DNA of 24,000 nucleotides, taken from assembly GCA_963603005.1 (NCBI GenBank), contig CAVCLW010000019.1, positions 8,896 to 32,895 of the forward strand, given 5' to 3'. Position numbers and translations under genes: made by a program. This DNA is from Escherichia coli (GTDB taxonomy: Bacteria; Bacillota; Negativicutes; Acidaminococcales; Acidaminococcaceae). This document shows, piece after piece, positions 269 through 24,000 of the stretch; positions within the stretch are counted from its first letter, which is position 1; the number at the start of each line of letters is the position of its first letter. A model generated the notes under the pieces. That model ran no database searches and was not told the DNA's origin. It saw nothing but the letters and a program-made list of their open reading frames with translations.

Positions 269-271
269 ACA

Positions 272-300: not shown

Positions 301-318
301 TTGAATGGGTTTTTGGGA

Positions 319-346: not shown

Positions 347-428
347 AAATTCTATACTATAATTAAACTAGAAGTAATTTACGTCTTTGCTCCTTGAGGG
401 GCGAAACGTAAAACAGGGGGGTTAATAA

Positions 429-1916
429 ATGGAAAAGCAATTAGCTTCACTCCTTGCCTTATTGCCGCAGGCTGAGGTTATTGGCAGTGCTGATAAAGTT
501 ATTACTGATGTAACTGCCGATTCCCGTGCGGTGGTAGCTGGCAGTCTTTTTATCTGCCTGAAGGGTGCAACTGTAGACGGACATAAATTTTTGAAGATGG
601 CTGCCGAGAAGGGCGCTGTTGCTGCGTTGGTGGAGGACGTTCCCGCTGAAGTACCGCAGGGCGTTACTCTGATTAAGGTTGCTGATACGCGTGAGGCTAT
701 GGAGTTGGTAACACCGTATTTTTATGATTATCCGGGACGCAAGCTGAGAATGATCGGTGTGACCGGTACTAACGGCAAAACAACTTCAACAAATATTATT
801 CGTCTGATTCTGCGCAAGGCAGGCTACAAGGTCGGCCTGATTGGCACTATCAATATTATGATTAACGATGAGATTACCGAATCTCATAACACTACTCCGG
901 ACGTAGTTGACCTGCAGAAAACACTGTACGCTATGTGCTGCGCCGGCTGCGATTACTGCGTAATGGAGGTTTCCAGCCATGCTTTGGCGCTGAAGCGTGT
1001 GGCAGGCATTGAATATGACTGCGCTGTGCTGACGAATATTACCCAGGATCACCTGGACTTCCATAAAACCATGGAGAATTACCGCGATGCTAAGAGCCTG
1101 CTCTTTGAGCATCTGACCGACGGCAGCAAGCTGAATAAAAACGCTGTCTTCAATATGGATGATCCGAGCTCCGCAATTATCCGCGAGCGTACCAAGGCTA
1201 ACGTACTGACCTATGGTGAAGGCCATGATAATGATATCTATCCTTTGAGCTTTACGGTAGAGCCTAAGCATATGCAGCTGCTGCTGCATACTCCGGTGGG
1301 CGAAATGGACCTGGAGCTGAAGATTACCGGTGAGTTCAATGTTTATAACGTTATGGGCGTTATCGGTGCAATGCTGGCTGAAAAGATTGACAAGGATATC
1401 ATCTGCTCCGTACTTGACGGCTTTGACGGCGTTCCCGGACGTTTCCAGCTCGTTGAGGCAGGACAGCCTTATACTGTTATTGTAGACTACGCACATACTC
1501 CCGACGGCTTGGAGAACGTGCTGAAAACCGCGCGCTCCATTACCCGCGGCAAGCTGTGGGTTGTGTTCGGCTGCGGCGGTGACCGTGACAACAAAAAGCG
1601 TCCGCTGATGGGTGCTTTGGCACTGGAGCTGGCTGACAACATCGTTGTTACCTCTGATAATCCGCGTACCGAGGATCCGGAGCTGATTATCGACGAAATC
1701 TTTACGGCGCTGCAAAATGTGCCTGAAGGCAAGCATGTTACCCGTCTGAGCGACAGACGTGAGGCTATTTGCTATGCTTTGGCAGAGGCTGCTGACGATG
1801 ATGTAATCCTGATTGCCGGCAAGGGCCACGAAAATTACCAGATTTTGAAGGACAGAACTATTCACTTTGATGATAAAGAAGTTGTAATGGAATACTGGAG
1901 TGATAAAAAATGCTGA
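429..1916 (+). CDS. murE: UDP-N-acetylmuramoyl-L-alanyl-D-glutamate--2,6-diaminopimelate ligase
   Basis: 495-aa ORF with the Mur ligase P-loop GVTGTNGKTT. The DNPR motif (TSDNPRTEDP) is typical of meso-DAP-adding MurE. An SD (GGGGGG) lies upstream of the ATG, and the 3' end overlaps murF by 7 nt. Confidence 0.95.
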   Translation: MEKQLASLLALLPQAEVIGSADKVITDVTADSRAVVAGSLFICLKGATVDGHKFLKMAAEKGAVAALVEDVPAEVPQGVTLIKVADTREAMELVTPYFYDYPGRKLRMIGVTGTNGKTTSTNIIRLILRKAGYKVGLIGTINIMINDEITESHNTTPDVVDLQKTLYAMCCAGCDYCVMEVSSHALALKRVAGIEYDCAVLTNITQDHLDFHKTMENYRDAKSLLFEHLTDGSKLNKNAVFNMDDPSSAIIRERTKANVLTYGEGHDNDIYPLSFTVEPKHMQLLLHTPVGEMDLELKITGEFNVYNVMGVIGAMLAEKIDKDIICSVLDGFDGVPGRFQLVEAGQPYTVIVDYAHTPDGLENVLKTARSITRGKLWVVFGCGGDRDNKKRPLMGALALELADNIVVTSDNPRTEDPELIIDEIFTALQNVPEGKHVTRLSDRREAICYALAEAADDDVILIAGKGHENYQILKDRTIHFDDKEVVMEYWSDKKC

Positions 1917-3274
1917 AGGCCAGTGAAGTTTTAGCAGCCACTAAGGCTGTTTGTGCAGATTTTGAGTTTACCGGCGTAACCACCGATTCCCGTGCGGTAA
2001 AGCCGGGAGAATTATTCGTAGCGCTGAAGGGCGATAATTTTGACGGCCATGACTATTGCGCCAAGGCTGTGGAGCTGGGTGCTGCGGGCGTTGTTGTATC
2101 CCATGAGGTGAGCGGCCTGCCTGCGGGCGTTGCTGTGTTCATGGTAGAGGATACGCTGCTTGCTTACCAGCAGCTTGCGCATGCCTACCGTCTGCGCAAG
2201 CAGGGCCTGAAGGTCTTTGCTATCACAGGCTCCAACGGCAAAACCTCTACGAAGGATTTGCTGGCTGCCTGCCTGAGCTGCAAATATAACGTTGTCAAAA
2301 CTCAGGGCAACTTCAATAATGAAATCGGTCTGCCGAAAACCTTGCTGAGCATTCAGCCGGATACCGATATTGCCGTTGTGGAGATGGGCATGCGCGGCCT
2401 GGGCCAGATTGCCGAGCTGTGCCGCATTGCCGAGCCGGACAGCGGTCTGATTACTAATGTGGGCGAAACCCACATGGAGCTTTTGGGCAGCATGGAAAAT
2501 ATTGGCAAGGCCAAAAGCGAAATCGTACTTAACCTGCCGGAGGATGGCTTTGCTGTTCTCAACGGCGATAACGAATACGTACTGCCGGCAGCAGGCAAGA
2601 CCAAGGCAAAGGTTGTTTACTTCGGACTGGGTGAAAACTGCGACTTCTGCGGCAGTGATATTGTGACATCCGGTGCAGGCACTACCTTTACCTGTACCCA
2701 TAAGGCTACCGGTGAAGCTGTTAAGGTAAGCCTGCAGCTGATTGGTGAGCATAACGTTTATAACGCGCTGAGCGCTATCGCCGGCGCCTTCTGTTACGGC
2801 GTGCCGATGGCAGCAAGCGCACAGGCATTGGCAACTGCTCGTCTGACAGGCAGCCGTCAGGAAATCGTTTATATCGGCGATATCACCTTTATCAACGATG
2901 CTTATAATGCAAGTCCGGCTTCTATGGAAGCGGCACTGAAAACCTTGGCGGAGGCCAAGAAGGCAGCTCATGGCAAAGCCCGCACTATTGCTGTACTGGC
3001 AGATATGCTGGAGCTGGGAGATATCAGCGAGGATGCTCATCGCCGTGTTGGCCGCTGGGCTGTAGAAAACGGTGTGGATTTTGTACTGACCTACGGACCG
3101 CAGGCTGCTTATATTGCGGATGAGGCTGCAAAGCTTGGCGGCAAGAGCAAGCATTGCGCCGACCGACAGGAGGCAGCGGATGCTTTGCGCCTGATGGCTT
3201 CCGCAGGTGATATTATCCTGCTTAAGGGCAGCCATTCCATGCAGGTTGACAAAATGCTGGAGCTGTTCAAGTAA
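1910..3274 (+). CDS. murF: UDP-N-acetylmuramoyl-tripeptide--D-alanyl-D-alanine ligase
   Basis: 454-aa ORF with the Mur ligase P-loop ITGSNGKTSTK. It occupies the MurF position between murE and mraY, and its ATG overlaps the murE stop. Confidence 0.93.
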   Translation: MLKASEVLAATKAVCADFEFTGVTTDSRAVKPGELFVALKGDNFDGHDYCAKAVELGAAGVVVSHEVSGLPAGVAVFMVEDTLLAYQQLAHAYRLRKQGLKVFAITGSNGKTSTKDLLAACLSCKYNVVKTQGNFNNEIGLPKTLLSIQPDTDIAVVEMGMRGLGQIAELCRIAEPDSGLITNVGETHMELLGSMENIGKAKSEIVLNLPEDGFAVLNGDNEYVLPAAGKTKAKVVYFGLGENCDFCGSDIVTSGAGTTFTCTHKATGEAVKVSLQLIGEHNVYNALSAIAGAFCYGVPMAASAQALATARLTGSRQEIVYIGDITFINDAYNASPASMEAALKTLAEAKKAAHGKARTIAVLADMLELGDISEDAHRRVGRWAVENGVDFVLTYGPQAAYIADEAAKLGGKSKHCADRQEAADALRLMASAGDIILLKGSHSMQVDKMLELFK

Positions 3275-3299
3275 ACTTAAGAGAGTGAGATTTTAGTAG

Positions 3300-4262
3300 A
3301 TGTTAAAATTAATCGGAATTCCTGTGACTGCGTTTATCGTGTGTGCTTTAATCGGCCCGGTGCTGATTCCTTATCTGCATAAGCTGAAGTTCGGCCAGTC
3401 TATCCGCGAGTGCGGACCGGCGAGCCATATGGCGAAAAGCGGCACACCGACTATGGGCGGACTTATGATGCTGGCAGCACTGCTTGTTGCTTTGCTGTGG
3501 GGCAACTTTACTCCCCATGTAATTATTGCTTTGGTGCTGACAGTAGGCCATGCGGTTATAGGCTTTATAGATGATTACATCAAGGTTGTAATGAAGCGCA
3601 ATCTGGGCCTGACTGCCAAGCAGAAATTTTTCCTGCAGTTCATTCTGGCCGGTGCCTATGTATATTTCGCCGAAACTCATATCCGCAATACGGAGCTGTG
3701 GGTTCCCGGCATCAATGCTGTAATTGATTTAGGCTGGGGTTATTATGTGCTGGCCTTCCTGCTTTTGGTTGGTACAACCAATGCCGTAAACCTGACGGAT
3801 GGTCTGGACGGACTGGTTTCTTTCGTCAGCCTGCCCGTTACCATGGTATTTGCTTTTATTGCTTACATGCAGGGCATGCTGGATCTGAGCGGTTTTTCTT
3901 TGGGCCTGACCGGTGCCTGCCTGGGCTTTTTACTGTTTAACCGTCATCCTGCCAGGGTATTTATGGGGGATACCGGTTCCTTGGCTTTGGGTGGTGCTGT
4001 TGCCGCTTTAGCGCTTTTGACACGTACAGAGCTGCTGCTGGTTATTGTCGGCGGTATCTATGTAGCGGAAGCACTGTCGGTAATTATTCAGGTTACATAT
4101 TTCCGTTTCAGCGGCGGTAAACGTATTTTCCGCATGTCTCCGCTGCATCATCATTTTGAGTTGGGCGGCTGGGCCGAGGTTAAGGTTGTGCGTGTGTTTA
4201 CAGCGGTAAGCTGCGTATTGTCTGTAATTGGCTTATGCCTGTGGCTTAATGCATTTGTATAA
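3300..4262 (+). CDS. mraY: Phospho-N-acetylmuramoyl-pentapeptide transferase
   Basis: 320-aa polytopic membrane protein carrying MraY signatures NAVNLTDGLDGL, MGDTGSLALGG and PLHHHFE. Confidence 0.95.
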   Translation: MLKLIGIPVTAFIVCALIGPVLIPYLHKLKFGQSIRECGPASHMAKSGTPTMGGLMMLAALLVALLWGNFTPHVIIALVLTVGHAVIGFIDDYIKVVMKRNLGLTAKQKFFLQFILAGAYVYFAETHIRNTELWVPGINAVIDLGWGYYVLAFLLLVGTTNAVNLTDGLDGLVSFVSLPVTMVFAFIAYMQGMLDLSGFSLGLTGACLGFLLFNRHPARVFMGDTGSLALGGAVAALALLTRTELLLVIVGGIYVAEALSVIIQVTYFRFSGGKRIFRMSPLHHHFELGGWAEVKVVRVFTAVSCVLSVIGLCLWLNAFV

Positions 4263-4271
4263 AAAATCTTC

Positions 4272-4318
4272 GGCTATAACCATTTTGTTGTAATTTTTGC
4301 GGTAAAATGGCTATAGCC
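4272..4318. repeat. Long near-perfect inverted repeat (stem-loop) in the mraY-murD spacer
   Basis: GGCTATAACCATTTT (4272-4286) pairs with AAAATGGCTATAGCC (4304-4318) at 14 of 15 positions, with a 17-nt loop. No clean T-run follows on either strand. Confidence 0.6.
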
Positions 4319-4350
4319 TATGTATGTTTATGAATAGAGGGTGTTTCTTG

Positions 4351-5724
4351 ATGACTAAAAAGGATGCTGTAATCGTTTACGGCGCAGGCATCAGCGGCCG
4401 TGGCGCAGCGCAGGTGCTGGCTGACAGAAAGCAGCAGGTTTATTTATATAACGATATGGACTGCACCATTGAGCCGCAGCTGCTGCAGCTTTTAGAGAGC
4501 GTTGGCGGCGGGCTGGCCATCGGTCAGGCTGAATTTGAAAGCCTGCTTGATATTGCAGAGGTGCTGGTGCTTTCTCCGGGTATCGCCTGCGATAACGCAA
4601 ATGTGCTGCTCGCAGAGCAGCGCGGACTGGAGGTCATCAGCGAGGTTGAGCTTGGCTACAGGCTGTATGGCGGTCATATTGCCGCTATCACCGGTACTAA
4701 CGGCAAAACCACTACCACTACTATCGTGGGCGAGATGCTCAAACGTCTGCCGGTGCCTTCTGCAGTAGGCGGTAACATTGGCCTGGCACTGTCTAAGGAG
4801 ATAGAGAGCCTGCCGCAGGATGGCTGGCTTGCTGCCGAGCTTTCCAGTTTTCAGCTGGAAAAAGTCAGCAGCTTCTGCCCTGATATCGCAGTAGTGCTGA
4901 ACCTGACTCCGGACCATCTGGAGCGTCATCATACGATGGAGGCCTACGGCGAGGCGAAGAAAAATATTTTCCGTCAGCAGGGCGAGGCGCAGGTTACGGT
5001 ACTGAATTACGATGATCCCATCGTGCGTACATGGGGTGCGGAAACTAAAGGCCGTCTGTGTTACTTCAGCCGTAAGGAAAAGCTGCAGCAGGGCATCTAC
5101 ATGCAGGATGGTAATTTTATCATCAGCTGGGACGGCAAGCAGGAAACTGTCTGCAATATCAGCGAGCTGCATCTGTTCGGCGGTCACAACGAAGAAAACG
5201 TGCTGGCAGCCATTGCCTGCGGCTTTTTCGCCGGTGTGAGCATCAGCGATATGGCTGATGTGCTGCGTAACTTCCGCAGCATTGAGCACCGCATTGAATA
5301 CGTTGCAACGATTGATGGCGTACCGTATTACAATGATTCCAAGGCTACCAATACCGATTCTACGATTAAAGCGTTGGAGGCCTTTAAGGACAGCCACATC
5401 ATCCTGCTCGCAGGCGGTCACGATAAGCTGACACCGCTGGAGCCGATGATGGAGCTGGTTAAGGAAAAGACCGATGCCTTGATTCTGTTGGGCGCTGCCA
5501 AGGAGCGCTTTAACAAGGCAGCTGTTGCCTGCGGCGTGCAGAACATCGTGCTGGCCGACAGCTTTGAGGACGCAGTGAGCAAGGCGCATGCGCTGGCACA
5601 TAAGCCACAGGTTGTGCTGCTTTCGCCGGCCTGCTCATCCTTTGATATGTTCAAGAATTATCCCGAACGCGGAAATTATTTTAAAAAGCTGGTACACGAG
5701 CTGGAGGGAGGTAACGTTAAGTGA
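4351..5724 (+). CDS. murD: UDP-N-acetylmuramoylalanine--D-glutamate ligase
   Basis: N-terminal Rossmann motif VYGAGISGRG and Mur ligase P-loop ITGTNGKTTTT. I prefer the ATG at 4351, which has an SD (AGAGGG) about 9 nt upstream, over the track's 4324 start, which adds a non-conserved MFMNRGCFL. Confidence 0.92.
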   Translation: MTKKDAVIVYGAGISGRGAAQVLADRKQQVYLYNDMDCTIEPQLLQLLESVGGGLAIGQAEFESLLDIAEVLVLSPGIACDNANVLLAEQRGLEVISEVELGYRLYGGHIAAITGTNGKTTTTTIVGEMLKRLPVPSAVGGNIGLALSKEIESLPQDGWLAAELSSFQLEKVSSFCPDIAVVLNLTPDHLERHHTMEAYGEAKKNIFRQQGEAQVTVLNYDDPIVRTWGAETKGRLCYFSRKEKLQQGIYMQDGNFIISWDGKQETVCNISELHLFGGHNEENVLAAIACGFFAGVSISDMADVLRNFRSIEHRIEYVATIDGVPYYNDSKATNTDSTIKALEAFKDSHIILLAGGHDKLTPLEPMMELVKEKTDALILLGAAKERFNKAAVACGVQNIVLADSFEDAVSKAHALAHKPQVVLLSPACSSFDMFKNYPERGNYFKKLVHELEGGNVK

Positions 5725-6824
5725 AGGTAATTCTTTCCGGCGGCGGTACGGGCGGACACATTTATCCGGCCCTGACCATTGCGGACCAGATAAAAAAACT
5801 GCAGCCTGAGGCGGAAATCAGCTTCGTAGGCACACAGCAGGGCTTGGAAAAGGATATCATTCCCCGCTACGGCTACAAGCTGCAGTTCATTGAAGTAGCA
5901 GGCTTTAAGCGCAGCCTGAGCCTGGATACCCTGCGCAGTGCAGCAAAGCTTTTTGCCGGCTTATATGATGCCTACAAGATTATCAGCAACGAAAAACCAG
6001 ATCTGGTAATCGGTACCGGCGGTTATGTCTGCGGCCCGATTGTTTTCATGGCAGCGTTAAAGGGAATTCCCTGCTGCATTCAGGAGCAGAATGCCATGCC
6101 AGGTGTAACCAATAAAATTTTGTCACGTTATGTGCGCAAAGTATTTTTAGGTTATAAAGAGGGCGGCAAATATTTTCACGGCAAGGCAGAGCTGGAATAT
6201 ACCGGCAATCCTATCCGCAGTGAAATTCTGCAGCATACGCGTGAGGAAGCTGTTAAGGAACTGGGGCTGGACCCGGCGAAGAAAACGATTCTCGTTTCCG
6301 GCGGCAGCCGTGGTGCGCGCACTATTAACAATGCGATGCTCGAAGCAGAGCTGGCACTTTCCGGCAGAGCCGAGGTGCAGGTGCTGCATGCAACCGGTGA
6401 TGTGAATTATGATGCCTATATGGCGGAAATCAAAAAGCGCGGCGGTGTGGCTGATAATATTATCATTAAGCCTTATCTGCATAATATGCCGGTAGCGCTG
6501 GCTGCGGCAGATTTGGCAGTGTTCCGTGCCGGTGCAATCGGTCTGGCAGAGCTGATGGCGAAGGGAGTGCCGTCGCTTTTGGTGCCATATCCGTATGCTA
6601 CGGCAAATCACCAGGAGTTTAATGCCAGAGCGGTAGAGGCTCAGGGTGCTGCCAAGGTTATTCTTGATAAGGATCTGACGGGTGATACCGTTTTGGAGTT
6701 TATCGAGCATTTATTAGTACATGAAGAGGAATTGCAGCAGATGCATGCGGCGGCGCAAAAGCTTGGCAGGCCGCAGGCTGCAGAGGTTATAGCCAAAGAG
6801 GCTGTGGCCTTGACTAAACAATAA
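5721..6824 (+). CDS. murG: UDP-N-acetylglucosamine--N-acetylmuramyl-(pentapeptide) pyrophosphoryl-undecaprenol GlcNAc transferase
   Basis: GTG start in a GTGA overlap with the murD stop. The N-terminal G-loop SGGGTGGHIYPAL and overall GT28 layout match MurG. Length is 367 aa. Confidence 0.93.
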   Translation: MKVILSGGGTGGHIYPALTIADQIKKLQPEAEISFVGTQQGLEKDIIPRYGYKLQFIEVAGFKRSLSLDTLRSAAKLFAGLYDAYKIISNEKPDLVIGTGGYVCGPIVFMAALKGIPCCIQEQNAMPGVTNKILSRYVRKVFLGYKEGGKYFHGKAELEYTGNPIRSEILQHTREEAVKELGLDPAKKTILVSGGSRGARTINNAMLEAELALSGRAEVQVLHATGDVNYDAYMAEIKKRGGVADNIIIKPYLHNMPVALAAADLAVFRAGAIGLAELMAKGVPSLLVPYPYATANHQEFNARAVEAQGAAKVILDKDLTGDTVLEFIEHLLVHEEELQQMHAAAQKLGRPQAAEVIAKEAVALTKQ

Positions 6825-6837
6825 GGGAGGGCCTCGA

Positions 6838-8232
6838 GTGGCTGAAAACAAATTAGCAAACCTGCATAATATACATTTTATCGGTATCGGCGGCGCCGGC
6901 ATGAGCGCGATTGCTTATGTATTGATTAAGCGTGGCTATGATGTAAGCGGTTCCGATTTAAATGCCGGTCATATGTCGGCACATCTGGCGGAGGAAGGCG
7001 CTATGGTTTATATGGGCCATGCTGCCAGCCAGGTGGAGGATGCCGAGGCTGTAGTTATTTCTACGGCGATTCATCCTAATAATCCGGAGCTGGTGGAAGC
7101 TCAAAGACGCGGCATTCCCGTGCTGCACCGCAGCGATGTGCTGGCAGCAATTATGAACGCTGCCGACGGCGTTGCTGTTGCCGGTGCACATGGCAAGACT
7201 ACCACCAGTGCAATGATTTCCTGCATCGCGGCTGAAAGCGGTATTGATCCTACTGTTATCATCGGCGGCGAGGTAAGCAGCCTCGGCGGTAATGCACGCA
7301 ACGGCGCAGGCCGCTTTGTGGTAGCGGAGGCTGACGAGAGCGACGGCTCCTTCCTCAAGCTGTATCCGTATCTTGCGGTAGTAACTAATATTGAAGATGA
7401 TCATCTGGACCATTATGGTACAGAAGAAAATATATATCAGGCCTTTAAACAGTTTGTTGGCAACATCAAGGAAGGCGGCAAGGCAATTCTCTGCTTTGAT
7501 AATGCCAAGGTGCGCCGTCTGGCTGCTGAAACCGACAAAGAGGTAATTACCTACGGCGTAGAAGGCGAGGGCGCTGACTACATTGCCCGTGACATCTCCT
7601 ACGGTGTTGGCGGCACGAGCTACAAGCTGTACTATAAGGGAGAATTTGTGACGGAGGTTCATCTGATTGTTCCCGGCAGACATAATGTGCTGAATTCTAT
7701 GGGTGCGTTTGCTGCTGCACATGAGATGGGCATTGCTACCGATAAAATTCTTGCATCATTGAAAAAGTTCGGCGGTGCCAAGCGTCGTTTTGAAACCAAG
7801 GGTAAGGTAAACGGTGTCTGGGTTGTTGATGATTATGCGCATCATCCGACAGAAATCGGCGTAACGCTGAAGGCTGCCAGACAGACGAAGCCTGAGCGCC
7901 TGCTGTGCGTGTTCCAGCCGCATCGCTACACCCGTACCAAGCTGCTGTTCTCTGAGTTCTGCGAATGCTTCAAGGATTGCGACGAGCTGATTCTGACTGA
8001 TATTTATGCAGCCAGCGAGGATGCAATTCCCGGCGTAAGCAGCATGCATTTGGCGGAGGGTATCAAAGCAGTGACCGGTCAGGAGGTACTGTATATCGGC
8101 AAGCTGACCAAGGCTGAGGAATACCTGGAGCGTATTGTACGTCCCGGCGATCTGGTGATGACCATCGGTGCCGGTGATGTGTTTAAAATTGGTGAAGAAT
8201 TAGTTAGGGAGTTGGAAAGAAATGCAGATTAA
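6838..8232 (+). CDS. murC: UDP-N-acetylmuramate--L-alanine ligase
   Basis: GTG start preceded by an SD (AAGGGAGGG). Carries IGIGGAGMSAIA and the P-loop VAGAHGKTTTS. Length is 464 aa. Confidence 0.93.
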   Translation: MAENKLANLHNIHFIGIGGAGMSAIAYVLIKRGYDVSGSDLNAGHMSAHLAEEGAMVYMGHAASQVEDAEAVVISTAIHPNNPELVEAQRRGIPVLHRSDVLAAIMNAADGVAVAGAHGKTTTSAMISCIAAESGIDPTVIIGGEVSSLGGNARNGAGRFVVAEADESDGSFLKLYPYLAVVTNIEDDHLDHYGTEENIYQAFKQFVGNIKEGGKAILCFDNAKVRRLAAETDKEVITYGVEGEGADYIARDISYGVGGTSYKLYYKGEFVTEVHLIVPGRHNVLNSMGAFAAAHEMGIATDKILASLKKFGGAKRRFETKGKVNGVWVVDDYAHHPTEIGVTLKAARQTKPERLLCVFQPHRYTRTKLLFSEFCECFKDCDELILTDIYAASEDAIPGVSSMHLAEGIKAVTGQEVLYIGKLTKAEEYLERIVRPGDLVMTIGAGDVFKIGEELVRELERNAD

Positions 8233-9169
8233 TAAGCAGGATGTTGTTGCTGTTGTTTTAGGCGGGCCTTCTTCTGAGGCCGAGATTTCGCGTGTTACCG
8301 GCGGTGCTATTGCCAATGCTTTGCGCGAAAAGGGCTATAATGCCAAGGAAGTGGAGCTGAATCCGTCTAATCTGATTAACGAGCTGCGTGATATGAACGC
8401 TAAGGTAGTATTTAACGCCGTTCATGGTATGTACGGTGAGGATGGCCGTTTGCAGAGCATTCTGGAGGCAGCAGGTATTCCTTATACCGGCTGCGGCGTA
8501 CTGGCAAGCGCTGTTTCTATGGATAAATCCGCTACGAAGCGTTATCTGCAGTCTGCAGGCATTCCTACCGCACCCTGCATGATTATCAATAAGCGTGATG
8601 CAGGTGATTTGCAGGCGCTGGCAGACAAAATTATTTCCGAGTTCGGTCTGCCCGTAGTTATCAAGGCAGCAACTCAAGGCTCCAGCATCGGCGTTGTAAT
8701 TCCTAAGACTGCAGAAGATGTTGTGCCTGCACTGGAGGAAGCCTTCAAGTATTCCGAAAATGTGCTGGCAGAAAAATGCATCAAGGGCAAAGAGCTGACG
8801 ATTTCTATTATGGAAGAGAACGGCGAGCCCAAACCGCTGCCGGTTATCTGGATTGCACCGCATTCCGGAGCCTATGACTTCCATTCCAAATACACCAAGG
8901 GTGCTACGGACTACCACTGCCCGGCACCGTTTGATGAGAAAACTACTGCTTATATCCAAAAAATTGCCGTAGAAACCTACAAGCTGCTGGGCCTTTCCGG
9001 TGTAGCGCGTGTAGATGCTATGCTGGGTGATGAGGATGGTGTTGCTTATGTACTTGAAGCAAATACTGTTCCCGGCATGACGGCAACCAGCCTGGTTCCG
9101 AAGGCTGCTGCTGCTGTTGGCATCAGCTTCCCGGAGCTGTGCGAGAAAATTTTACTGAGCGCTAAATAA
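8222..9169 (+). CDS. ddl: D-alanine--D-alanine ligase
   Basis: 315-aa ATP-grasp protein. N-terminal VVLGGPSSEAEIS, HGMYGEDGRLQ and C-terminal LEANTVPGMT are typical of Ddl. It overlaps murC by 11 nt. Confidence 0.92.
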   Translation: MQINKQDVVAVVLGGPSSEAEISRVTGGAIANALREKGYNAKEVELNPSNLINELRDMNAKVVFNAVHGMYGEDGRLQSILEAAGIPYTGCGVLASAVSMDKSATKRYLQSAGIPTAPCMIINKRDAGDLQALADKIISEFGLPVVIKAATQGSSIGVVIPKTAEDVVPALEEAFKYSENVLAEKCIKGKELTISIMEENGEPKPLPVIWIAPHSGAYDFHSKYTKGATDYHCPAPFDEKTTAYIQKIAVETYKLLGLSGVARVDAMLGDEDGVAYVLEANTVPGMTATSLVPKAAAAVGISFPELCEKILLSAK

Positions 9170-9202
9170 AAAAGTTTTACAAGGAGCCAAAGGAGGTGCA
9201 GC

Positions 9203-9979
9203 ATGGATTCATCGCAGACTATACGCGAACAACTGCGCAGACGCAGACGCCGGAAATTCTGGCACCTGGTGCGCTTATTGGTATCTACGGCTGTACTTGC
9301 TGTAACATGTACATATGCCTGGCGCTATGTGCATAATCCTGCGTTTGCCTTTGGCAACGTCAGCATTCACGGAAGCAGTCAGCTGACGGAGACGGAGGTT
9401 ATCTCGCTTGCAGGCTGCGGGCAGGGACCGTTGAATCTTTTCAATGCCAGCTCCGGCCGTCTGCGTGAGGCTTTGCTGCATGATGTCCGCTTTAAGAATG
9501 CAGAGGTGGCTTATCGCTTTCCGGCAACCTTGCAGGTGAGCGTAGAGGAACGACAGCCGGCGCTTTATGTTGCCAATTCCTATCACAGCTATCTGAAGGT
9601 GGATTATAACGGCGTAGTTCTCAGTGTGACAACTACTATTCCGGATGCCAAGGCTCCTGTGCTGGCCGGCATAAAATGCGGTAATCTCTATCTGGGTGAT
9701 AAGGTTGCCAATACGGGTGTGCTGCAGATTCTGCAATTTTTGCAGCAGCTGACGCCGGAAGCACTGCAGCGTATCGGCGAAATTGCCGTTGATGATAAGC
9801 AGGATGTCAAGCTGCAGCTGAGCGGCAGCTTTCCGGTGCGTCTGGGCAGGGTGCAGGAGGTATCACAGAAGGCTTCTGTGTTTATGACTGTGTTCAACGA
9901 GATTAAAGATAAAAACATTAAGGCTGAATATATTGATTTGACCTTCGGTAAGCCATATATCAAGCTTTTGCCAAAATAA
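9203..9979 (+). CDS. ftsQ: Cell-division protein FtsQ/DivIB (POTRA domain)
   Basis: 258-aa bitopic protein with a basic N-terminus (RRRRRK) and one TM helix. The POTRA-like segment FGNVSIHGSSQLTETEVISLAG follows. It sits at the FtsQ position after ddl, with an SD (AAGGAGG) upstream. Confidence 0.85.
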   Translation: MDSSQTIREQLRRRRRRKFWHLVRLLVSTAVLAVTCTYAWRYVHNPAFAFGNVSIHGSSQLTETEVISLAGCGQGPLNLFNASSGRLREALLHDVRFKNAEVAYRFPATLQVSVEERQPALYVANSYHSYLKVDYNGVVLSVTTTIPDAKAPVLAGIKCGNLYLGDKVANTGVLQILQFLQQLTPEALQRIGEIAVDDKQDVKLQLSGSFPVRLGRVQEVSQKASVFMTVFNEIKDKNIKAEYIDLTFGKPYIKLLPK

Positions 9980-9998
9980 ATTGCTGTTAACTTGTTAT

Positions 9999-10019
9999 AG
10001 CTGCAAAGCTGTTGCAGCT
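9999..10019 (+). other. Stem-loop directly after ftsQ
   Basis: AGCTGCAA (9999-10006) pairs with TTGCAGCT (10012-10019) around a 5-nt loop. No T-run follows, so it may be an mRNA-stabilising or processing hairpin rather than a terminator. Confidence 0.3.
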
Positions 10020-10042
10020 GATGTCACAGTGAGGGTGAGATA

Positions 10043-10741
10043 ATGAAAGAAATTTTTACTATGGATTTAAAGGGCAAGCTGTTGATTGCCGTGGTATTCA
10101 TGGTGTTGGGATTTATGCTTTCGGTACAGTATAAAACTACAGAGCTTCAACGCAATGTGCGTATGGACCGCGTAGAGGATTTGTCGGAACGCCTGAAGAT
10201 TATGGAAGCCGAGAACAAGCAGCTGCTGACGGAGCTGGAAACCTTGCGCGCAGGTGCTGCCAAGGATCCTGCTGATGACCGTATGAAGCTGATGGCAGGC
10301 ACGACTGACGTAGAGGGCGAAGGTATTGAGATTTTGCTGGATGACAGCAATATTGCCAAAAAGTCCGGCGAAAATCCTAATCTGTACATCATTCATGATG
10401 AAGATTTGCTGCGTGTGCTCAACGAGCTGCGCGCTGCCGGTGCGGAAGCGATTTCTGTCAACGATCAGCGCATTGTAGCTATGAGCGAGATTCGTTGTGC
10501 CGGACCTACTATTTCGGTCAACAATGTCCGTAGTGCTCCGCCTTATGTTATCAAGGCTATCGGTGCTCCTAAAACTCTGAGCAGTGCCCTGCGTCTGCGT
10601 GGCGGTGTTGTAGAAACCTTTGAGTTCTGGGGCATTCAGGTAAAAATCAAGACTGTTGAAAAGCTGCATATTCCGGCGCTGAAGGCACCGCGCAGCTTTG
10701 AATACGCTAAGACGGTGGAAAGCAAGGAGGCAGCGAAATGA
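10043..10741 (+). CDS. DUF881 family division-cluster protein (YlxW/YlxX-like)
   Basis: One N-terminal TM helix and a coiled-coil. The C-terminal block (GEGIEILLDD...IIHDEDLLRVLNELRAAGAEAISVNDQRI...PPYVIKAIG) is characteristic of DUF881. In B. subtilis these genes sit between divIB and sbp. Confidence 0.8.
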   Translation: MKEIFTMDLKGKLLIAVVFMVLGFMLSVQYKTTELQRNVRMDRVEDLSERLKIMEAENKQLLTELETLRAGAAKDPADDRMKLMAGTTDVEGEGIEILLDDSNIAKKSGENPNLYIIHDEDLLRVLNELRAAGAEAISVNDQRIVAMSEIRCAGPTISVNNVRSAPPYVIKAIGAPKTLSSALRLRGGVVETFEFWGIQVKIKTVEKLHIPALKAPRSFEYAKTVESKEAAK

Positions 10742-11070
10742 TTGGATTTGCATTTGCCGGCCTTGTGCTTGGCCTTATACTCGGTGTTTACTGTCCTTTC
10801 AGAGTGCCGCCTGAATACGCGCGCCTGCTTGCCGTAGCCGTTATGGCCGGTATGGATGCAGTGCTGGGCGGTGTACGTGCTTCGCTCGAAGGCAATTATG
10901 ATACTCAGGTTTTCATTTCCGGCTTCTTTATCAACGGTATCCTGGCTGCCTTTTTGTGCTATGCAGGTAATCTGATCGGTATCGATTTGTATCTGGTAGC
11001 GGTACTGATTTTCGGTATGCGTATTTTCCAGAATCTGGGAATTATCCGTCGCCTTTATATGGGCAAATAA
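10738..11070 (+). CDS. sbp: Small basic protein Sbp (DUF1290), membrane protein
   Basis: 110-aa hydrophobic protein whose start forms an ATGA overlap with the DUF881 stop. GGVRASLEGNYDTQVFISGFF...GMRIFQNLGIIRR resembles B. subtilis Sbp as I recall it. Confidence 0.75.
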   Translation: MIGFAFAGLVLGLILGVYCPFRVPPEYARLLAVAVMAGMDAVLGGVRASLEGNYDTQVFISGFFINGILAAFLCYAGNLIGIDLYLVAVLIFGMRIFQNLGIIRRLYMGK

Positions 11071-11194
11071 GTGTCCTGCAGGAAGATGAAGAAAAAAATT
11101 CATCAATAAGCAGGAAAATAGCACTTTCGTGTTGAACAATATAAAAATGATTTTTTTATAAATAAGCTACCCAAAGCTAAGGGGGACGTAGAAT

Positions 11195-12265
11195 ATGTTT
11201 GATGACGTAGAGACAACCTTTGAACCGTTGGCCAATATTAAAGTAATTGGTGTAGGCGGTGGCGGCAATAACGCCGTAAACCGTATGATTGACGCCGGCG
11301 TAAGCGGCGTAGAATTCATTGCAGTGAACTGCGATAAGCAGTGCCTAATGCTTTCCAAAGCAGAAAAACGCATCCAAATCGGCGAAAAGCTGACTAAAGG
11401 TCTGGGTGCAGGCGCAAATCCTGAAATCGGCGAAAAAGCTGCCGAAGAATCCCGTGACCAGATTTTGGAGTCCCTGAAGGGGGCAGATATGGTATTTGTT
11501 ACCGCAGGTATGGGCGGTGGTACCGGTACCGGTGCTGCGCACGTTGTTGCGGAATGTGCTAAAGAAATCGGTGCGCTGACTGTCGGCGTTGTAACCAAAC
11601 CCTTTGGCTTTGAAGGTCCTCGCCGCATGAAGCAGGCTGAGGCAGGCATTGTCAACCTGAAGGAAAAGGTTGATACCCTGGTAACTATTCCTAACGACCG
11701 TTTGCTGCAGATTATCGAAAAACGTACTTCCATGCTGGAAGCATTCAAAAAGGCCGATGACGTATTGCGTCAGGGCGTTCAGGGCATTTCCAACCTGATT
11801 GCTGTTCCCGGTCTGATTAACGTTGACTTCGCCGATGTCAAGACTGTTATGTCCAATGCAGGCAGCGCTCTGATGGGCGTTGGTACCGCTAAGGGCGAAG
11901 GCGGCGGCAAGGCTGCAGCCGAAGCTGCTATCAAGAGCCCGTTGCTTGAAGCATCTATCGACGGTGCCCGCGGTGTACTGATTAACGTTATCGGCGGCAA
12001 GGAGCTGTCCCTGTTTGACGTTAACGAAGCTGCCAATATTGTCAATGAAGCAGCTGATCCCAATGCAGTGGTTATTTTCGGCGCTGTTATTGATGAAAGC
12101 CTCAACGACGAAATCCGTGTTACGGTTATCGCAACAGGCTTTGAGAAAAAATCTCCTGTTACCAAAAATACAGTTGGCGGTCCGGCATCTATCAACCGCA
12201 ACAGTAGCGGTGTTATCAAGAATTTCTCTGATCCGAATGAAATTCCGCCATGGCTGCGTCACTGA
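11195..12265 (+). CDS. ftsZ: Cell-division GTPase FtsZ
   Basis: Tubulin signature GGGTGTG, plus [17 protein letters not shown] and NDRLL. The C-terminal anchor-binding peptide is EIPPWLRH. An SD (AAGGGGGA) lies upstream. Confidence 0.97.
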
Positions 12266-20204: not shown

Positions 20205-21065
20205 TTACGTCAGAGAAGTTGTATCCTTATCTTCAACTTTCAAAAAGATTTTGTTGACGTACTGTTCGCAGTCGCAGGAGAACCAATGATTTTCCAGAGG
20301 CAGGATATAAATATTGCCGACAGGCTCCAAATCATTGGTCTGCAGAAAGTGTTCGATGCGCTGGGATAATTTTTCAGCGTTCTCGCAAAAGGTACCCGAA
20401 AAAATAATTTCCAGATACAGACCGGCAGGCAACGTCATTTTGATGGACTGCCGATGCTTGGTGGCGCTGGTGACACAGGAAAAATATGCCTGTGAACGTT
20501 GAAATTCATGCTTTTTAAAAAAGCTTTCCTGGTCTAAAACCCAGCCTGCATGATTAGGCAAGGCTCCCTTGTGATGCGCGCGTCTTTGACCATGGCGTGC
20601 AAATTTGGTAATGCGGCTTTTGCCGTCATCACTTTCCGCAAGCGGCGTCAGACGCAGCAGACGGTCAGTTTGCCAGCTGAGCGTAATGTGACGGCAGGGG
20701 TTAAGCTCCTTGACGTGCATATCCTCCTTAATGCGCTCGATGGTGTCGCAGATTTCCTGATTGTTGTGGATGATTGCCTGACATTCCGCTGTTTTTTCCT
20801 GCAGCAGCTGCAGAAAATGCTCCTTGCTGCGGTCCTCCAGATATTTTTTGATATTGGCGATGCTGATATCCAGCGCACGCAGGTTGACGATTATCTCCAA
20901 ATCCAGAAATTGCTGGATAGAATAATTGCGGTAGCCATTTTCACTGATAAAGTCCGGTGAAAGCAGGTTAACCTTGTCGTAGTAGAGCAATGACTGCTTA
21001 GATATATTAAAAATTGCTGCCAGCTCGCCGGCAGTAAAGTACTTTCGCTTGTCTTTATTAATCAT
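20205..21065 (-). CDS. MerR-family transcriptional regulator with a C-terminal GyrI-like (BmrR-type) effector-binding domain
   Basis: The N-terminal wHTH (YFTAGELAAIFNISKQSLLYYDKVNLLSP...NGYRNYS) is followed by a coiled-coil dimerisation helix. The roughly 150-aa C-terminal domain (LPAGLYLEIIFSGTF...IYILPLENHW...IFLKVE) looks GyrI-like. An SD (GAGGAA) is present. The gene is divergent from the nifH-like operon. Confidence 0.85.
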   Translation of the reverse strand: MINKDKRKYFTAGELAAIFNISKQSLLYYDKVNLLSPDFISENGYRNYSIQQFLDLEIIVNLRALDISIANIKKYLEDRSKEHFLQLLQEKTAECQAIIHNNQEICDTIERIKEDMHVKELNPCRHITLSWQTDRLLRLTPLAESDDGKSRITKFARHGQRRAHHKGALPNHAGWVLDQESFFKKHEFQRSQAYFSCVTSATKHRQSIKMTLPAGLYLEIIFSGTFCENAEKLSQRIEHFLQTNDLEPVGNIYILPLENHWFSCDCEQYVNKIFLKVEDKDTTSLT

Positions 21066-21082
21066 AATTGTTCCTCATAAGC

Positions 21083-21113
21083 TTGACTATAATACTAGTA
21101 TATAGTTTAATAT
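21083..21113 (+). promoter_or_regulatory. MerR-type promoter/operator for the nifH-like operon
   Basis: -35 TTGACT (21083-88), a 19-bp spacer, and -10 TAATAT (21108-13). The spacer holds a perfect 10-bp palindrome ATACTAGTAT (21092-21101) nested in ACTATA-N9-TATAGT (21086-21106). The region is AT-rich, so alternative hexamers exist. Confidence 0.55.
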
Positions 21114-21148
21114 TAGAAGGAATAGTATCACTTCTTTTTATCTAGTAA

Positions 21149-21177
21149 ATTATATCATATTTTTCCTGCTATTTAAA
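21149..21177 (-). promoter_or_regulatory. Candidate promoter of the MerR-family gene
   Basis: The minus strand reads TTTAAA-17 bp-TATAAT with an extended -10 (TGATATAAT is the complement of 21149-21157). The resulting transcript would traverse the palindrome before reaching the regulator's start codon. Confidence 0.4.
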
Positions 21178-21213
21178 TAGGAGTTTTGAGTATAGGATGG
21201 AGGTCAATATTTA

Positions 21214-22020
21214 ATGAAGAAAATTGCGATTTATGGTAAGGGCGGTATCGGCAAATCTACGACAACATCAAATCTGTCGGCTGCATTCAGTGAGGATGGT
21301 CTTAAGGTTTGCCAAATAGGCTGCGATCCGAAAAATGATTCTACCAGACTTTTGCTGGGACGCATCTGCAGCCAGACTGTTCTGGACATGGTGCGCGATA
21401 ATGATGAGGTTGCGGCAGAGGATATTGTTCATACAGGCTACAATGGCATCAAATGCGTAGAGGCCGGCGGTCCTGAACCAGGCGTAGGCTGTGCGGGCCG
21501 TGGTATTATTGTGGCGCTGGAAAAGCTGCGTTCGCTGGAGGTGCTGACGGACGAGGACCTGATTATGTATGACGTTTTAGGTGACGTAGTTTGCGGCGGT
21601 TTCGCCGTGCCTATCCGTGAGGGCTATGCAACCGATATATATATTGTTTCTTCCGGCGAGCTGATGAGCCTTTATGCTGCCAACAACATTGCCAAGGGCG
21701 TAAAGCGTTTTGCTATGCGCGGCGGTGTGCGTTTGGGCGGTATCATCGGCAACGGTCGTAATACACCTAACGAGCAGCAGCTGCTGCAGGAATTCGCCAA
21801 ACGCCTGCACACTCAGCTGATTGCTTTCATTCCGCGTGATGTAATCGTCAATAAGGCGGAAAACAATCGCCAGACAGTGCTGCAGTATGCACCGGAAAGC
21901 GCTCAGGCCGGCGTTTACCGCAAGCTGGCGCATGATATTTGGCATAATGAAAACATGGCTATTCCTACGCCGATGAGCTTTGAGGAGCTTGAAAAGCTGG
22001 TGGCCGAATATGGCAATTAA
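21214..22020 (+). CDS. NifH/BchL/CfbC-family ATP-dependent [4Fe-4S] reductase component (nitrogenase iron protein-like)
   Basis: 268 aa. P-loop [11 protein letters not shown] and switch [10 protein letters not shown]. Cluster cysteines are in GVGCAGRGI and switch [14 protein letters not shown]. An SD (GGATGGAGG) lies upstream. Confidence 0.93.
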
Positions 22021-23299
22021 AACAAGACGCTTTTACAGTGCACGCAAAAGCTGTAGCTGCAGCATGCCTGGCGTGTGGCGCGCCGTTGCCTATATGAACG
22101 GAGCTGTGGTAGTTTTTCACAGCCCGCGTGCCTGTGCTCATGTAGCACGCACGATGGATATCAATTCTCAATACCGCACGCTTTCCGAAAATGAACGTGA
22201 GCAATGGGGCTCCGTGCCGCTGCTGAGCAGCCAGATGCAGGAAAAGGACGCAATTTTCGGCGGTGTGGCGCGTTTGGAAAAATGCCTGCGCTTTGCCATT
22301 GAAACATATAAACCCAAGTGCCTGATGATTGCCAATTCCTGCGTGGCCGGTGTTATCGGTGACGATGTGGAATCGGTGGCACGCGAGGTGGAGGAGGAAT
22401 ATAATGTTCCTATTCTGACTGTTGAATGCTGCGGTTTTTTGGGTGCGGAATATTATGACGGCTATTTTGAAATTACGCAGAAGCTGTTGGAGCGCTTTGT
22501 GAAGCCTTGCACCAAGCAAAAGGACAGCGTCCTGCTTTTAGGCGATAACGGTGGCCCGTGGGGGCATTACGCGAAAGAGGTTACGCGTATTTTGCAGGAA
22601 TTCGGCGTAGAGGTTATCGGTCAGTTCCCCGGCTATATGGCTATGGATGAGCTGGAAAAGGTGGCAGCCGCCGAATATGCGGTTGTGCTTGGCGGCCGCG
22701 GGCAGACGCATATCGGTTTGCGTAAGGTTGCAGAGCAGCTGCAGGAAAAATACGGCACACATTATCTGGCCGATATTTATCCTGTCGGCTGGCAGGAAAC
22801 GCAGGACTGGATTATCAGCATCGGCCGTATGCTGGGGCGTGAGCAGTTGGCACAGCAGGTGCTGAGGCTGGAGCAGCAGCGCTTAAGTGAGCAGCTGCAG
22901 CATTTTCTGCCGGTAACGGAAGGCAAGAAAACAGTGCTGTGCATCGGTCGTATTCTGAGATATTTTCATCCGGGGAATATCCTGCAGACTATCAAGCTTT
23001 TGCGCTTGAATCTTACCGGCATTATTCTCTTGGATTCCTATGACGGTGATGAGCGTGAAGCGATGCTGAAGGTTGTGCAGGAAAACAGCGATGTACCTGT
23101 TTATACTACGGCGGAGGGTGAAAAGCTGGTTGCAGAGGCAGATATCGTGTTGACAACGCACGAACTGCAGAATAAGGAGGCACGCCAGATTTTTCTGCCG
23201 ATGCTGCCGCAGGTTGCCGTTGCCGGTGAGGTCAAGATGATGCAGGGAATTTATCAGAGCCTGTGCAGCAGGCTGAAGGGAGGCGTGCGCTATGTCTGA
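22010..23299 (+). CDS. Nitrogenase component-1-type oxidoreductase, NifD/NifE-like subunit
   Basis: 429 aa, with an ATG overlapping the nifH-like gene by 11 nt. By-eye alignment to NifD places [42 protein letters not shown] and VECCGF. The track's 21980 start is rejected as an in-gene extension. Confidence 0.85.
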
Positions 23300-24000
23300 A
23301 AAACAAGGCTGGGGCAATATCTGCGAGCGTGTGGATACCTGTGCGCTGACAGGTGCAGGTGCCTTTTTCGCTGCTATTGATAAGAGTGAGGTTTTGATTA
23401 ACGGACCATTGTGGTGTTATTTTTATGCTCTTCGACATCTGGAAAAGGCGCGTCCCGATATGTATACGCGCTTTTACGGCTCTCAGCCTGATAATAACGC
23501 TGTTATTTATGGCTCCGAGGAATATGTAACGCAGGAGCTGCAGCGTATGCTGGAGGATGGTCATAAGCCTTCGGTGCTGCTTTTGGAAAGCAGCTGCTCG
23601 CTGAGCTTAATCGGTGATGATTTGGCAGGCATGGCGCGCAAGCTGGAGCTGCCGTTCCCTGTGGTTACATTGGATAGCGGCGGTATGGTCGGCGGCTTTG
23701 CTGCAGGCTACGCCAAGGCTGCCAAGAAGCTGTTTGCGCAGCTGTTGCCGCAGACTGCGACAGCAAAGCCTTTGGCAGTGAATATTTTAGGACAATCGGA
23801 ATTTTATCTGCAGGGTGCTGCCGATACGCAGGAATTAAAACGCTTACTGCAGCTGGCAGGCTATGAGGTGCTGTGCACTCCCGGCTGCGAATGCACGCTG
23901 GAGGAGCTGCAGAAGCTTCCGGAGGCTTCACTGAACATTGTTACCAATGCGGAGCTGGGTTTGCCGCTGGCTGAATATCTGCAGAAAAAATACGGCACGC
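23292..24000 (+). CDS. Nitrogenase component-1-type oxidoreductase, NifK/NifN-like subunit (3'-partial, runs off the window)
   Basis: I translated this by hand and the frame stays open from ATG 23292 to nt 24000 (236 codons). An SD (AAGGGAGG) lies 8 nt upstream, and the start overlaps the preceding gene by 8 nt. Motifs are DTCALTGA, NGPLWCYFY and ESSCSLSLIGDDL. It is absent from the supplied ORF track because no stop falls within the window. Confidence 0.8.
   Translation, partial: MSEKQGWGNICERVDTCALTGAGAFFAAIDKSEVLINGPLWCYFYALRHLEKARPDMYTRFYGSQPDNNAVIYGSEEYVTQELQRMLEDGHKPSVLLLESSCSLSLIGDDLAGMARKLELPFPVVTLDSGGMVGGFAAGYAKAAKKLFAQLLPQTATAKPLAVNILGQSEFYLQGAADTQELKRLLQLAGYEVLCTPGCECTLEELQKLPEASLNIVTNAELGLPLAEYLQKKYGT

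Follow-up and report, generated by a model that had tools for sequence, protein, structure and literature searches.

We analysed a 24,000-nt stretch of contig CAVCLW010000019.1 (hereafter the window), a chromosomal stretch of a Negativicute whose end carries three tightly packed genes, nflH, nflD and nflK. They encode a nitrogenase-like system that consists of a NifH-like Fe protein and two core subunits, here called D-like (NflD) and K-like (NflK). The two subunits keep the six cysteines that hold the P-cluster of nitrogenase and lack both ligands of the iron-molybdenum cofactor (FeMo-co), and their operon continues with genes for a cobaltochelatase and a BtuC-like permease. Moreover, four homologous operons lie directly behind cobalamin riboswitches. 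We propose, with a probability of roughly 0.55, that NflHDK is an ATP-driven nitrogenase-like reductase acting on a corrinoid or cobalt tetrapyrrole in vitamin B12 salvage or uptake. The D-like protein of the locus is 99% identical to that of Phascolarctobacterium succinatutens YIT 12067, and P. succinatutens is a common human-gut bacterium.

Cluster cysteines and cofactor cavity of NflD and NflK

A total of 85 D-like and 80 K-like sequences were gathered from 86 loci. Of these, 48 D-like and 50 K-like non-redundant sequences were aligned by MAFFT L-INS-i together with NifD, NifK, NifE and NifN taken from the annotated plasmids of Sinorhizobium medicae and Clostridium butyricum. An earlier note on this DNA, based on a by-eye alignment, had placed three cysteines of the D-like subunit at NifD Cys62, Cys88 and Cys154, and three of the K-like subunit at NifK Cys70, Cys95 and Cys153. 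All motifs that it quoted are present, and the MAFFT and HMMER alignments bore the placement out, with the cysteines coinciding with the cluster-ligand columns. The three NifD columns are Cys in 48 of 48 D-like sequences (Cys17, Cys42 and Cys111), and the three NifK columns in 50 of 50 K-like sequences (Cys17, Cys42 and Cys102), giving the P-cluster ligand set of NifDK (α 62/88/154, β 70/95/153) in full, six of six (Table 1). HMMER independently paired the three D-like cysteines with Cys66, Cys91 and Cys158 of MarD, with a shared 25-residue spacing from Cys to Cys, and the HSPxxC segment at D-like Cys42 aligns with HGPxGC. The mean column identity of the D-like family is only ~56% in a 26-sequence alignment, and the cysteine pattern is far beyond chance, because these columns are invariant among sequences down to 40% identity.

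The earlier note had also found no FeMo-co cysteine in the D-like subunit. Indeed, the stretch it quoted is free of Cys, and the NifD Cys275 column holds no Cys in any of the 48 D-like sequences, but Thr, Ser, Pro, Ala, Val and similar residues instead. Among three alignments the Cys275 (MarD Cys270) column falls on Thr233 or Gly228, depending on the method, and never on Cys. An AlphaFold2 model of the D-like monomer, built with 70 homologs, has a predicted local distance difference test score of 87 and a predicted TM-score of 0.86, and Foldseek matches it to the folds of NifD and MarD with a TM-score of ~0.65. As the sequence alignment of domain III is unreliable, the secondary-structure order of this model and the 25-residue Cys spacing were used there instead. 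Domain III of the model has five strands (residues 307-312, 334-340, 364-365, 379-382 and 392-395), as many as domain III of NifD. Strand-by-strand matching would place the loop of NifD His442, whose equivalent the earlier note had left to a check, at LPMLPQ (residues 396-401), and no His or Cys is conserved in this predicted counterpart. Three other routes to domain III were discarded: phmmer of D-like residues 289-429 against the PDB gave no meaningful match; MAFFT paired Glu385 with His442, the region being shifted by one β-α unit; and a global hhalign comparison with a profile of two NifD sequences reported zero confidence for domain III and mis-paired the first cysteine by setting SMPGVW onto SIPGVM.

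A histidine nevertheless occurs in domain III of the D-like protein, at position 384. Its column is His in 26, Asn in 13, Asp in 8 and Thr in 1 of the 48 sequences, with Asn or Asp in Dialister and Succiniclasticum; because these replace His in part of the family, His384 is not a strict cluster ligand, and its role as a conserved metal ligand was rejected. The preceding residue is an invariant Thr, compared to Arg428 in MarD. Long relatives (480-515 aa) that keep the Cys275 column often have His at the His384 column, as seen in an alignment with distant relatives. MarD binds its L-like cluster by Cys270 and His429, a His other than His442 (2026 review, PMC13474568). Judging from these alignments, we infer that His384 may be the counterpart of MarD His429, namely a relic of the Group IV His, and not of NifD His442.

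The Fe protein of the system is intact. NflH matches Pfam Fer4_NifH with an E value of 3e-109, is 54.5% and 56.9% identical to NifH of S. medicae and C. butyricum, respectively, and has the P-loop, Cys97 and Cys132 (VVCGGF), all kept in 76 of 76 homologs. It scores just under the NCBIfam cut-offs for nifH (392.9 vs 394.35) and CfbC (389.6 vs 402), and none of the three nfl products reaches any curated NCBIfam equivalog cut-off. The D-like and K-like proteins both match Pfam PF00148 (E=6.7e-52 and 5.2e-34), whereas the equivalog scores are 101.8 vs 653.55 for D-like against nifD, and 48.5 vs 427.3 for full-length K-like against nifK. Models of tetrapyrrole reductases also score far below their cut-offs (BchB 96 vs 490; BchN 48 vs 420; CfbD, TIGR03282, 41 vs 268). 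As the earlier note had held, NflD and NflK are two distinct subunits, with 25% identity to each other, in contrast to CfbD, a single subunit with two conserved cysteines.

Two further claims of that note also found support. The 3+3 invariant cysteines, the missing Cys275 and the lack of NifB argue for an inter-subunit Fe-S cluster without FeMo-co, and the absent FeMo-co ligands together with the lack of NifB and NifEN in the operon argue for an enzyme that does not reduce N2. The best reading of NflD and NflK is a heteromeric core that does not reduce N2, leaves its cofactor cavity empty and carries either a P-cluster-type or a double-[4Fe-4S] site. Proteins with 3+3 P-cluster cysteines and without both FeMo-co ligands form a class known since the work of Dos Santos et al. 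(2012; PMC3464626), whose “yellow” clades comprise NifD/E-NifK/N pairs of exactly this pattern. The Negativicutes family matches that class in its ligand pattern and in its NifH-adjacent PF00148 pair. The same authors reported that some nitrogenase-like genes are co-located with ABC transporters; for the “yellow” clades, no function, no linkage to CobN, ChlI/ChlD, a radical S-adenosylmethionine (radical-SAM) enzyme or CbiZ, and no riboswitch control are described there (PMC3464626).

The best solved match to the D-like protein is the methylthio-alkane reductase MarHDK of R. rubrum (Group IV-C; PDB 9fmg/9d9u), with an E value of 5e-28, or 2.5e-42 with a profile. They share the H + D + K architecture and the six P-cluster cysteines at the same columns but differ in length, the D-like protein being ~90 residues shorter than MarD (429 vs 519 aa). 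As MarD is the closest solved relative and His384 may correspond to MarD His429, an organosulfur C-S cleavage like that of MarBHDK or IsrBHDK, or a residual N2 reduction, deserves mention. Such activities are scarcely credible here: Cys270/Cys275 and the FeMo-co ligands are absent, Thr replaces Arg428, His384 is not conserved, MarB and NifB are missing from the operon, and the neighbours are transport, chelatase and amidase genes with no sulfur-metabolism context.

After MarD, the solved structures that match best include NifEN, which might suggest a scaffold or maturase whose D/K pair assembles or carries a metal cofactor for another enzyme, linked to metal-chelate import. This idea was raised by Dos Santos et al. 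for transporter-linked homologs (PMC3464626), and it would suit those distant D/K operons that have no adjacent NifH. For NflDK it is quite improbable, as the operon has no NifB and no client enzyme, the D-like protein has no NifE-type Cys275 equivalent, and the H, D and K gene junctions overlap as expected of a stoichiometric enzyme. In addition, the K-like protein keeps all three cluster cysteines, compared to one in NifN, as is generally known.

Beyond the six ligand positions, further cysteines are conserved in both subunits: Cys15, which forms a CxC with Cys17 (40 of 48), Cys92 (47 of 48), Cys104 (45 of 48) and Cys419 (41 of 48) in the D-like protein, and Cys11 (49 of 50) in the K-like protein. 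They may serve as additional or alternative cluster ligands.

Operon composition and cobalamin riboswitches

Beyond the end of the window, the operon could be read from six contigs that encode an identical D protein. They carry, after H-D-K, a substrate-binding protein (SBP, Peripla_BP_2), a FecCD permease, a CobN of 1239 aa, a radical-SAM enzyme, a CN_hydrolase and a TonB receptor. CobN passes the cobaltochelatase equivalog cut-off (940 vs 822), and the FecCD permease has BtuC as its best match. The only radical-SAM gene of the operon encodes a SPASM protein that lacks a RiPP recognition element and is closest to CteB and anSME. This protein was rejected as a NifB or MarB, since it shows only a generic similarity to the radical-SAM core of NifB (E=9e-6 over 96 aa), and no NifB, NifE or NifN gene was found within ~20 kb around the operon.

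Over 80 genome loci, all Negativicutes by content, the block H-D-K-(SBP-permease)-CobN-radical-SAM is conserved from Phascolarctobacterium to Dialister, whose D-like proteins are 40-44% identical. At more than 20 loci, genes for ChlI and ChlD come after this block and complement CobN to a full class I chelatase; both match best to TIGR02442, “putative cobaltochelatase”. Dialister loci without an adjacent CobN have CbiK and an SBP divergently upstream. This conserved corrinoid-linked operon appears to be the new part of the present analysis, as no paper describing it was found in the literature searched.

Several of these genes also bring heme to mind. Under such a reading, the importer would take up gut heme or porphyrins, CobN or CbiK would insert or remove the metal, NflHDK would reduce either the porphyrin ring or the vinyl groups on it, and side chains would be trimmed by the radical-SAM enzyme, with iron harvest or porphyrin remodelling as the purpose. 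HmuS, a heme dechelatase, belongs to the CobN superfamily (PMC12583661). Moreover, the SBP of the operon matches IsdE, heme-type models give the best match to one related TonB receptor, the Dialister CbiK encoded beside an SBP carries an N-terminal extension, and the trio of chelatase, radical-SAM enzyme and nitrogenase-like protein mirrors the generally known BchHID, BchE and dark-operative protochlorophyllide oxidoreductase (DPOR). However, CobN of the operon is far closer to a true CobN than to HmuS, with 720 bits to CobN of M. tuberculosis, 549 to ChlH and 400 to HmuS, the last match lying mainly in the C-terminal third, so that a HmuS-type dechelatase is disfavoured. The ChlI/ChlD partners indicate an ATP-driven insertion of metal and not its removal, and the cobalamin riboswitches, CbiZ, BtuR and CbiB of homologous operons point to corrinoids. 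We therefore consider heme or porphyrin processing unlikely, for either purpose.

The evidence for B12 regulation comes from distant relatives collected by an exhaustive HMMER search. The nearest of them are all short (410-437 aa), keep the three cysteines and lack the Cys275 column; both subunits of the relatives L092, L095, L096, L097 and L098 keep the 3+3 cysteines, and all five lack Cys275. Four homologous operons, at L092, L096, L097 and L098, are located directly behind cobalamin riboswitches (RF00174). At L096 (D-like identity 35%), the riboswitch precedes H-D-K-CobN-FecCD-ATPase-radical-SAM-ChlI-ChlD, and at L097 (about 34%) it precedes H-D-K and a TonB receptor. The operon of L098 (38%) has three tandem riboswitches, full-length and scoring 114-116 bits each (5950-7033), followed by H-D-K-TonB receptor-CN_hydrolase-CbiZ-CobN, with CbiK genes upstream. 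At L092 (25-27%), a divergent MerR gene is followed by TonB receptor-SBP-D-K behind a riboswitch. No riboswitch was found at L095 (about 35%), where H-D-K is preceded by cbiB, an aminotransferase gene, cobA/btuR, cbiK, an SBP gene, cbiK, a TonB receptor gene and another SBP gene. Other distant D/K pairs, with no NifH next to them, belong to operons for TonB receptors and ABC importers and have a MerR gene as neighbour. For the transporter parts of these relatives, the best-scoring models are those for corrinoid or heme, with every score below the cut-off. The L098 locus harbors two more riboswitches nearby (4395-4577, and 2825-3000 on the minus strand), one of them ahead of a CbiK gene.

Riboswitches ahead of an operon may in principle mean the opposite of B12 handling. 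Cobalamin riboswitches commonly control B12-independent isozymes, and NflHDK might thus be a back-up enzyme, repressed by cobalamin, that replaces a B12-dependent reaction in the manner of metE or nrdDG. This is very unlikely, since the transcription units in question also encode TonB receptors, Btu-like importers, CobN/ChlID, CbiZ and CbiK, which handle corrinoids and do not form an alternative catalytic pathway. Altogether, the riboswitches, CbiZ and the cobaltochelatase make all four alternatives (C-S or N2 chemistry, scaffold, heme processing and back-up enzyme) less consistent with the evidence than a corrinoid or cobalt-tetrapyrrole reductase.

A proposed reductase for corrinoids or cobalt tetrapyrroles

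The closest working analogy to NflHDK is given by DPOR (BchLNB), chlorophyllide oxidoreductase (COR, BchXYZ) and CfbCD. Each combines an ATP-dependent Fe protein with a core that has a simple inter-subunit Fe-S cluster and binds the tetrapyrrole at the FeMo-co position, and their genes associate with a chelatase and, for bacteriochlorophyll, a radical-SAM enzyme. They differ from NflDK in the cluster site. DPOR holds one [4Fe-4S] cluster by three Cys, one Cys and one Asp, and CfbD is homomeric, whereas NflDK has 3+3 Cys. K-like Cys42 falls on the Asp ligand of ChlB and K-like Cys102 on ChlB Cys95, so that the K-like protein has Cys at the Asp-ligand position and, unlike BchB, keeps an extra third Cys.

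In the proposed system, NflH would be a homodimeric ATPase with a [4Fe-4S] cluster that donates low-potential electrons one at a time to the NflD/NflK core. This core is presumably an α2β2 assembly with an inter-subunit cluster held by three cysteines of each partner, and the cluster would be either of the P-cluster type ([8Fe-7S]) or made of two [4Fe-4S] units. The cavity, which houses FeMo-co in NifD and the L-like cluster in MarD, offers no Cys ligand here, and the operon encodes no NifB; the cavity therefore most likely binds an organic substrate directly, as in DPOR, COR and CfbCD. The substrate might be imported by the co-encoded TonB receptor and the BtuF/BtuC-like importer, or metallated by the CobN(-ChlI-ChlD) cobaltochelatase, or both, and its further processing could fall to the SPASM radical-SAM protein and to the amidases CN_hydrolase and CbiZ. 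Two chemistries may be envisaged. In one, NflHDK would drive the reduction of Co(II) to Co(I) by ATP ahead of adenosylation by BtuR/CobA, the adenosylated product then becoming a substrate of CbiZ. In the other, it would reduce a C=C bond of the macrocycle, paralleling DPOR, COR and CfbCD. CbiZ acts on adenosylated cobinamide, and therefore the Co(II) to Co(I) option fits the BtuR and CbiZ neighbours.

Two systems described previously come close to this proposal. The Group VI nitrogenase-like proteins of Elusimicrobia, for which a tetrapyrrole link has been proposed, share the radical-SAM neighbours and the lack of FeMo-co ligands and NifB (PMC13474568). They differ in an NflH ~40% identical to NifH and in DK subunits with at most four of the six cysteines, compared to 55-57% and six cysteines in the operon here. 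Operon-2 of Dehalobacter restrictus, a corrinoid-salvage operon of an anaerobic Firmicute, combines a cobalamin riboswitch with a corrinoid ABC transporter, CbiZ, CobN and Mg-chelatase subunits (PMC4285132), but no nitrogenase-like genes were reported in it.

A number of observations weigh against a corrinoid or cobalt-tetrapyrrole substrate. The homologs that provide the evidence for B12 regulation share only 25-38% identity and may be paralogs that act on another substrate. No cobalamin riboswitch was found in the window, where the 5' untranslated region is too short to hold one, or in 7 further Phascolarctobacterium and Dialister loci. A complete anaerobic B12 pathway has been predicted for P. 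succinatutens (PMC7568257), which leaves its need for CobN unexplained. In this species, ChlI and ChlD are not adjacent to the operon, and CobN and the BtuC-like permease are the only co-operonic genes of B12 type. The transporter components fall below every curated cut-off, and the heme-type match of one related TonB receptor described above counts here as well. So does the N-terminal extension of the Dialister CbiK, which resembles that of periplasmic heme-binding CbiK homologs. Several distant D/K operons have no adjacent NifH. Cluster type and stoichiometry are not readable from the sequence, and because the model is of a monomer only, the interface position of the cysteines follows from homology.

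If the proposed reductase is placed in a wider frame, vitamin B12 might tentatively be regarded as a third physiological arena of nitrogenase homologs, besides N2/C-S chemistry and chlorophyll/F430 synthesis, with NflHDK as an ATP-driven corrinoid reductase that operates with CobN-ChlID and a SPASM radical-SAM enzyme. In this arena Co(I) would be made at about -600 mV for adenosylation and salvage, or the macrocycle of a corrin or its precursor would be reduced. If true, abundant gut bacteria that turn succinate into propionate would have an unrecognised anaerobic route to salvage, re-metallate or remodel scavenged corrinoids. The route from succinate to propionate in Phascolarctobacterium depends on methylmalonyl-CoA mutase, a B12-dependent enzyme (PMC7568257), and the proposal, if confirmed, would bear on the B12 economics of the gut and on propionate production, in addition to widening the chemistry known for the nitrogenase superfamily.

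A 2026 review regards the assignment of functions to uncharacterised nitrogenase-like clades as a main challenge of the field, and notes that gene context has so far tied Group IV only to sulfur metabolism (PMC13474568). To this picture the present family adds an intact Fe protein, a full P-cluster ligand set, an empty cofactor pocket and repeated links to corrinoid uptake, cobaltochelatase, CbiZ and riboswitches. Two human-gut species available in culture, P. succinatutens YIT 12067 and Dialister succinatiphilus YIT 11850, carry the family, and its conserved corrinoid-linked operon makes the function of the clade directly testable. The family is also common, as the 90% cluster of the D-like protein contains 5,773 member sequences. 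Look-alikes of nifH and nifD inflate the counts of “nitrogen-fixers” in gut metagenomes (PMC8597730).

Locus, regulator and minor observations

The coordinates of the features in the window are listed in Table 1. Gene order after recO is a divergent MerR-family gene, then nflH, nflD and nflK. The frames of nflH and nflD overlap by 11 nt (22010-22020) and those of nflD and nflK by 8 nt (23292-23299), which suggests translational coupling of the three subunits. The full-length K-like protein was taken from contigs with an identical D protein (L001 11283-12578).

Table 1. Features of the nfl locus (positions in the window, 1 to 24,000)
Feature	Position	Strand	Description
MerR-family regulator	20205-21065	-	286 aa; N-terminal MerR helix-turn-helix and C-terminal GyrI/Cass2-like effector domain
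Candidate MerR-type promoter/operator	21083-21113	+	TTGACT, 19-nt spacer with dyad CTATA-N7-TATAG, TAATAT; ~100 nt upstream of nflH
nflH	21214-22020	+	NifH-like ATP-dependent Fe protein, 268 aa
nflD	22010-23299	+	D-like subunit, 429 aa; ATG at 22010; family N-terminus MAIKTKRF
D-like Cys17 codon	22058-22060	+	NifD Cys62 / MarD Cys66; motif KSCSCSMPG; N-terminus of model helix 19-26
D-like Cys42 codon	22133-22135	+	NifD Cys88 / MarD Cys91; motif HSPRACAHV
D-like Cys111 codon	22340-22342	+	NifD Cys154 / MarD Cys158; surrounding 10-residue motif invariant
Further D-like Cys codons	22052-22060 (CxC), 22283-22285, 22319-22321, 23264-23266	+	Conserved beyond the six ligand positions
D-like residues 219-250	22664-22759	+	Region homologous to the NifD Cys275 / MarD Cys270 segment; without Cys
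D-like His384 codon	23159-23161	+	Motif LTTHE, just after strand β4 of domain III
nflK	23292-24000	+	K-like subunit; ATG at 23292; window ends after the first 236 of its 431 codons
K-like Cys11 codon	23322-23324	+	Further conserved Cys
K-like Cys17 codon	23340-23342	+	NifK Cys70; motif DTCALTGA
K-like Cys42 codon	23415-23417	+	NifK Cys95; motif NGPLWCYFY
K-like Cys102 codon	23595-23597	+	NifK Cys153; motif ESSCSLSLIGDDL

The regulator matches Pfam MerR_1 (8.6e-11) and Cass2 (1.6e-4), with BmrR, BrlR, SkgA and EcmrR as its best PDB matches, and has an architecture of the BmrR/BrlR/EcmrR type. Its gene adjoins nflH in 43 loci, and MerR genes also adjoin distant D/K operons. The 148-nt intergenic region holds a promoter with the spacing of classic MerR promoter geometry, and the same architecture occurs upstream of nflH in most loci of the Phascolarctobacterium clade (nflH 79-100% identical), with conserved dyad arms and a variable centre; it is absent from Dialister-type loci. 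The dyad is a putative operator. The nflHDK genes of P. succinatutens would accordingly be under a ligand-sensing MerR-type activator, and those of other lineages under cobalamin riboswitches.

Upstream of the nfl locus, the window contains a complete dcw cluster (429-12265; murE, murF, mraY, murD, murG, murC, ddl and ftsQ on to ftsZ), followed by nrdR, yfiH, phoH, ybeY, cdd, era and recO. GC skew is positive over all 24 kb and nearly every gene lies on the plus strand, as expected of a leading-strand region.

Some loci depart from the common operon. Directly upstream of the main operon, L049 carries a second, paralogous module (48-7759) of CobN, D-like, K-like, a 271-aa radical-SAM protein, an unknown open reading frame (ORF) and an SBP. 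In this module, the D-like gene is broken into two ORFs, of 133 and 321 aa, by a frameshift or as a pseudogene. The TonB receptor is present only as a 134-aa fragment in L001, L002, L005 and L006 (20548-21290), beside a PDDEXK_2 (transposase-like) gene in the latter three, and is intact-looking (530-640 aa) in L003 and L004 (~20520-21290); it looks like a gene disrupted at strain level. Three Succiniclasticum loci (L054, L070 and L080) encode D-like and K-like proteins with no NifH-like gene detected within ~10 kb, and L080 has a tautomerase-family ORF upstream of the D/K genes. The distant D/K pairs of L089 and L091-L094 are likewise without an adjacent Fe protein.

A database protein of 595 aa, probably a chimeric assembly, combines the first half of the D-like protein, to which it is 99% identical over 51% of the query, with domains resembling elongation factors. 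In addition, nflHDK contigs of Negativicutes type (L016, L018, L019, L020, L039, L058, L062, L068, L077 and L086) bear other names in the database, among them Bacteroides sp., Segatella copri, Ruminococcus, Lachnospiraceae and Fusicatenibacter. These misnamed contigs probably reflect bin contamination in the respective sets of metagenome-assembled genomes.

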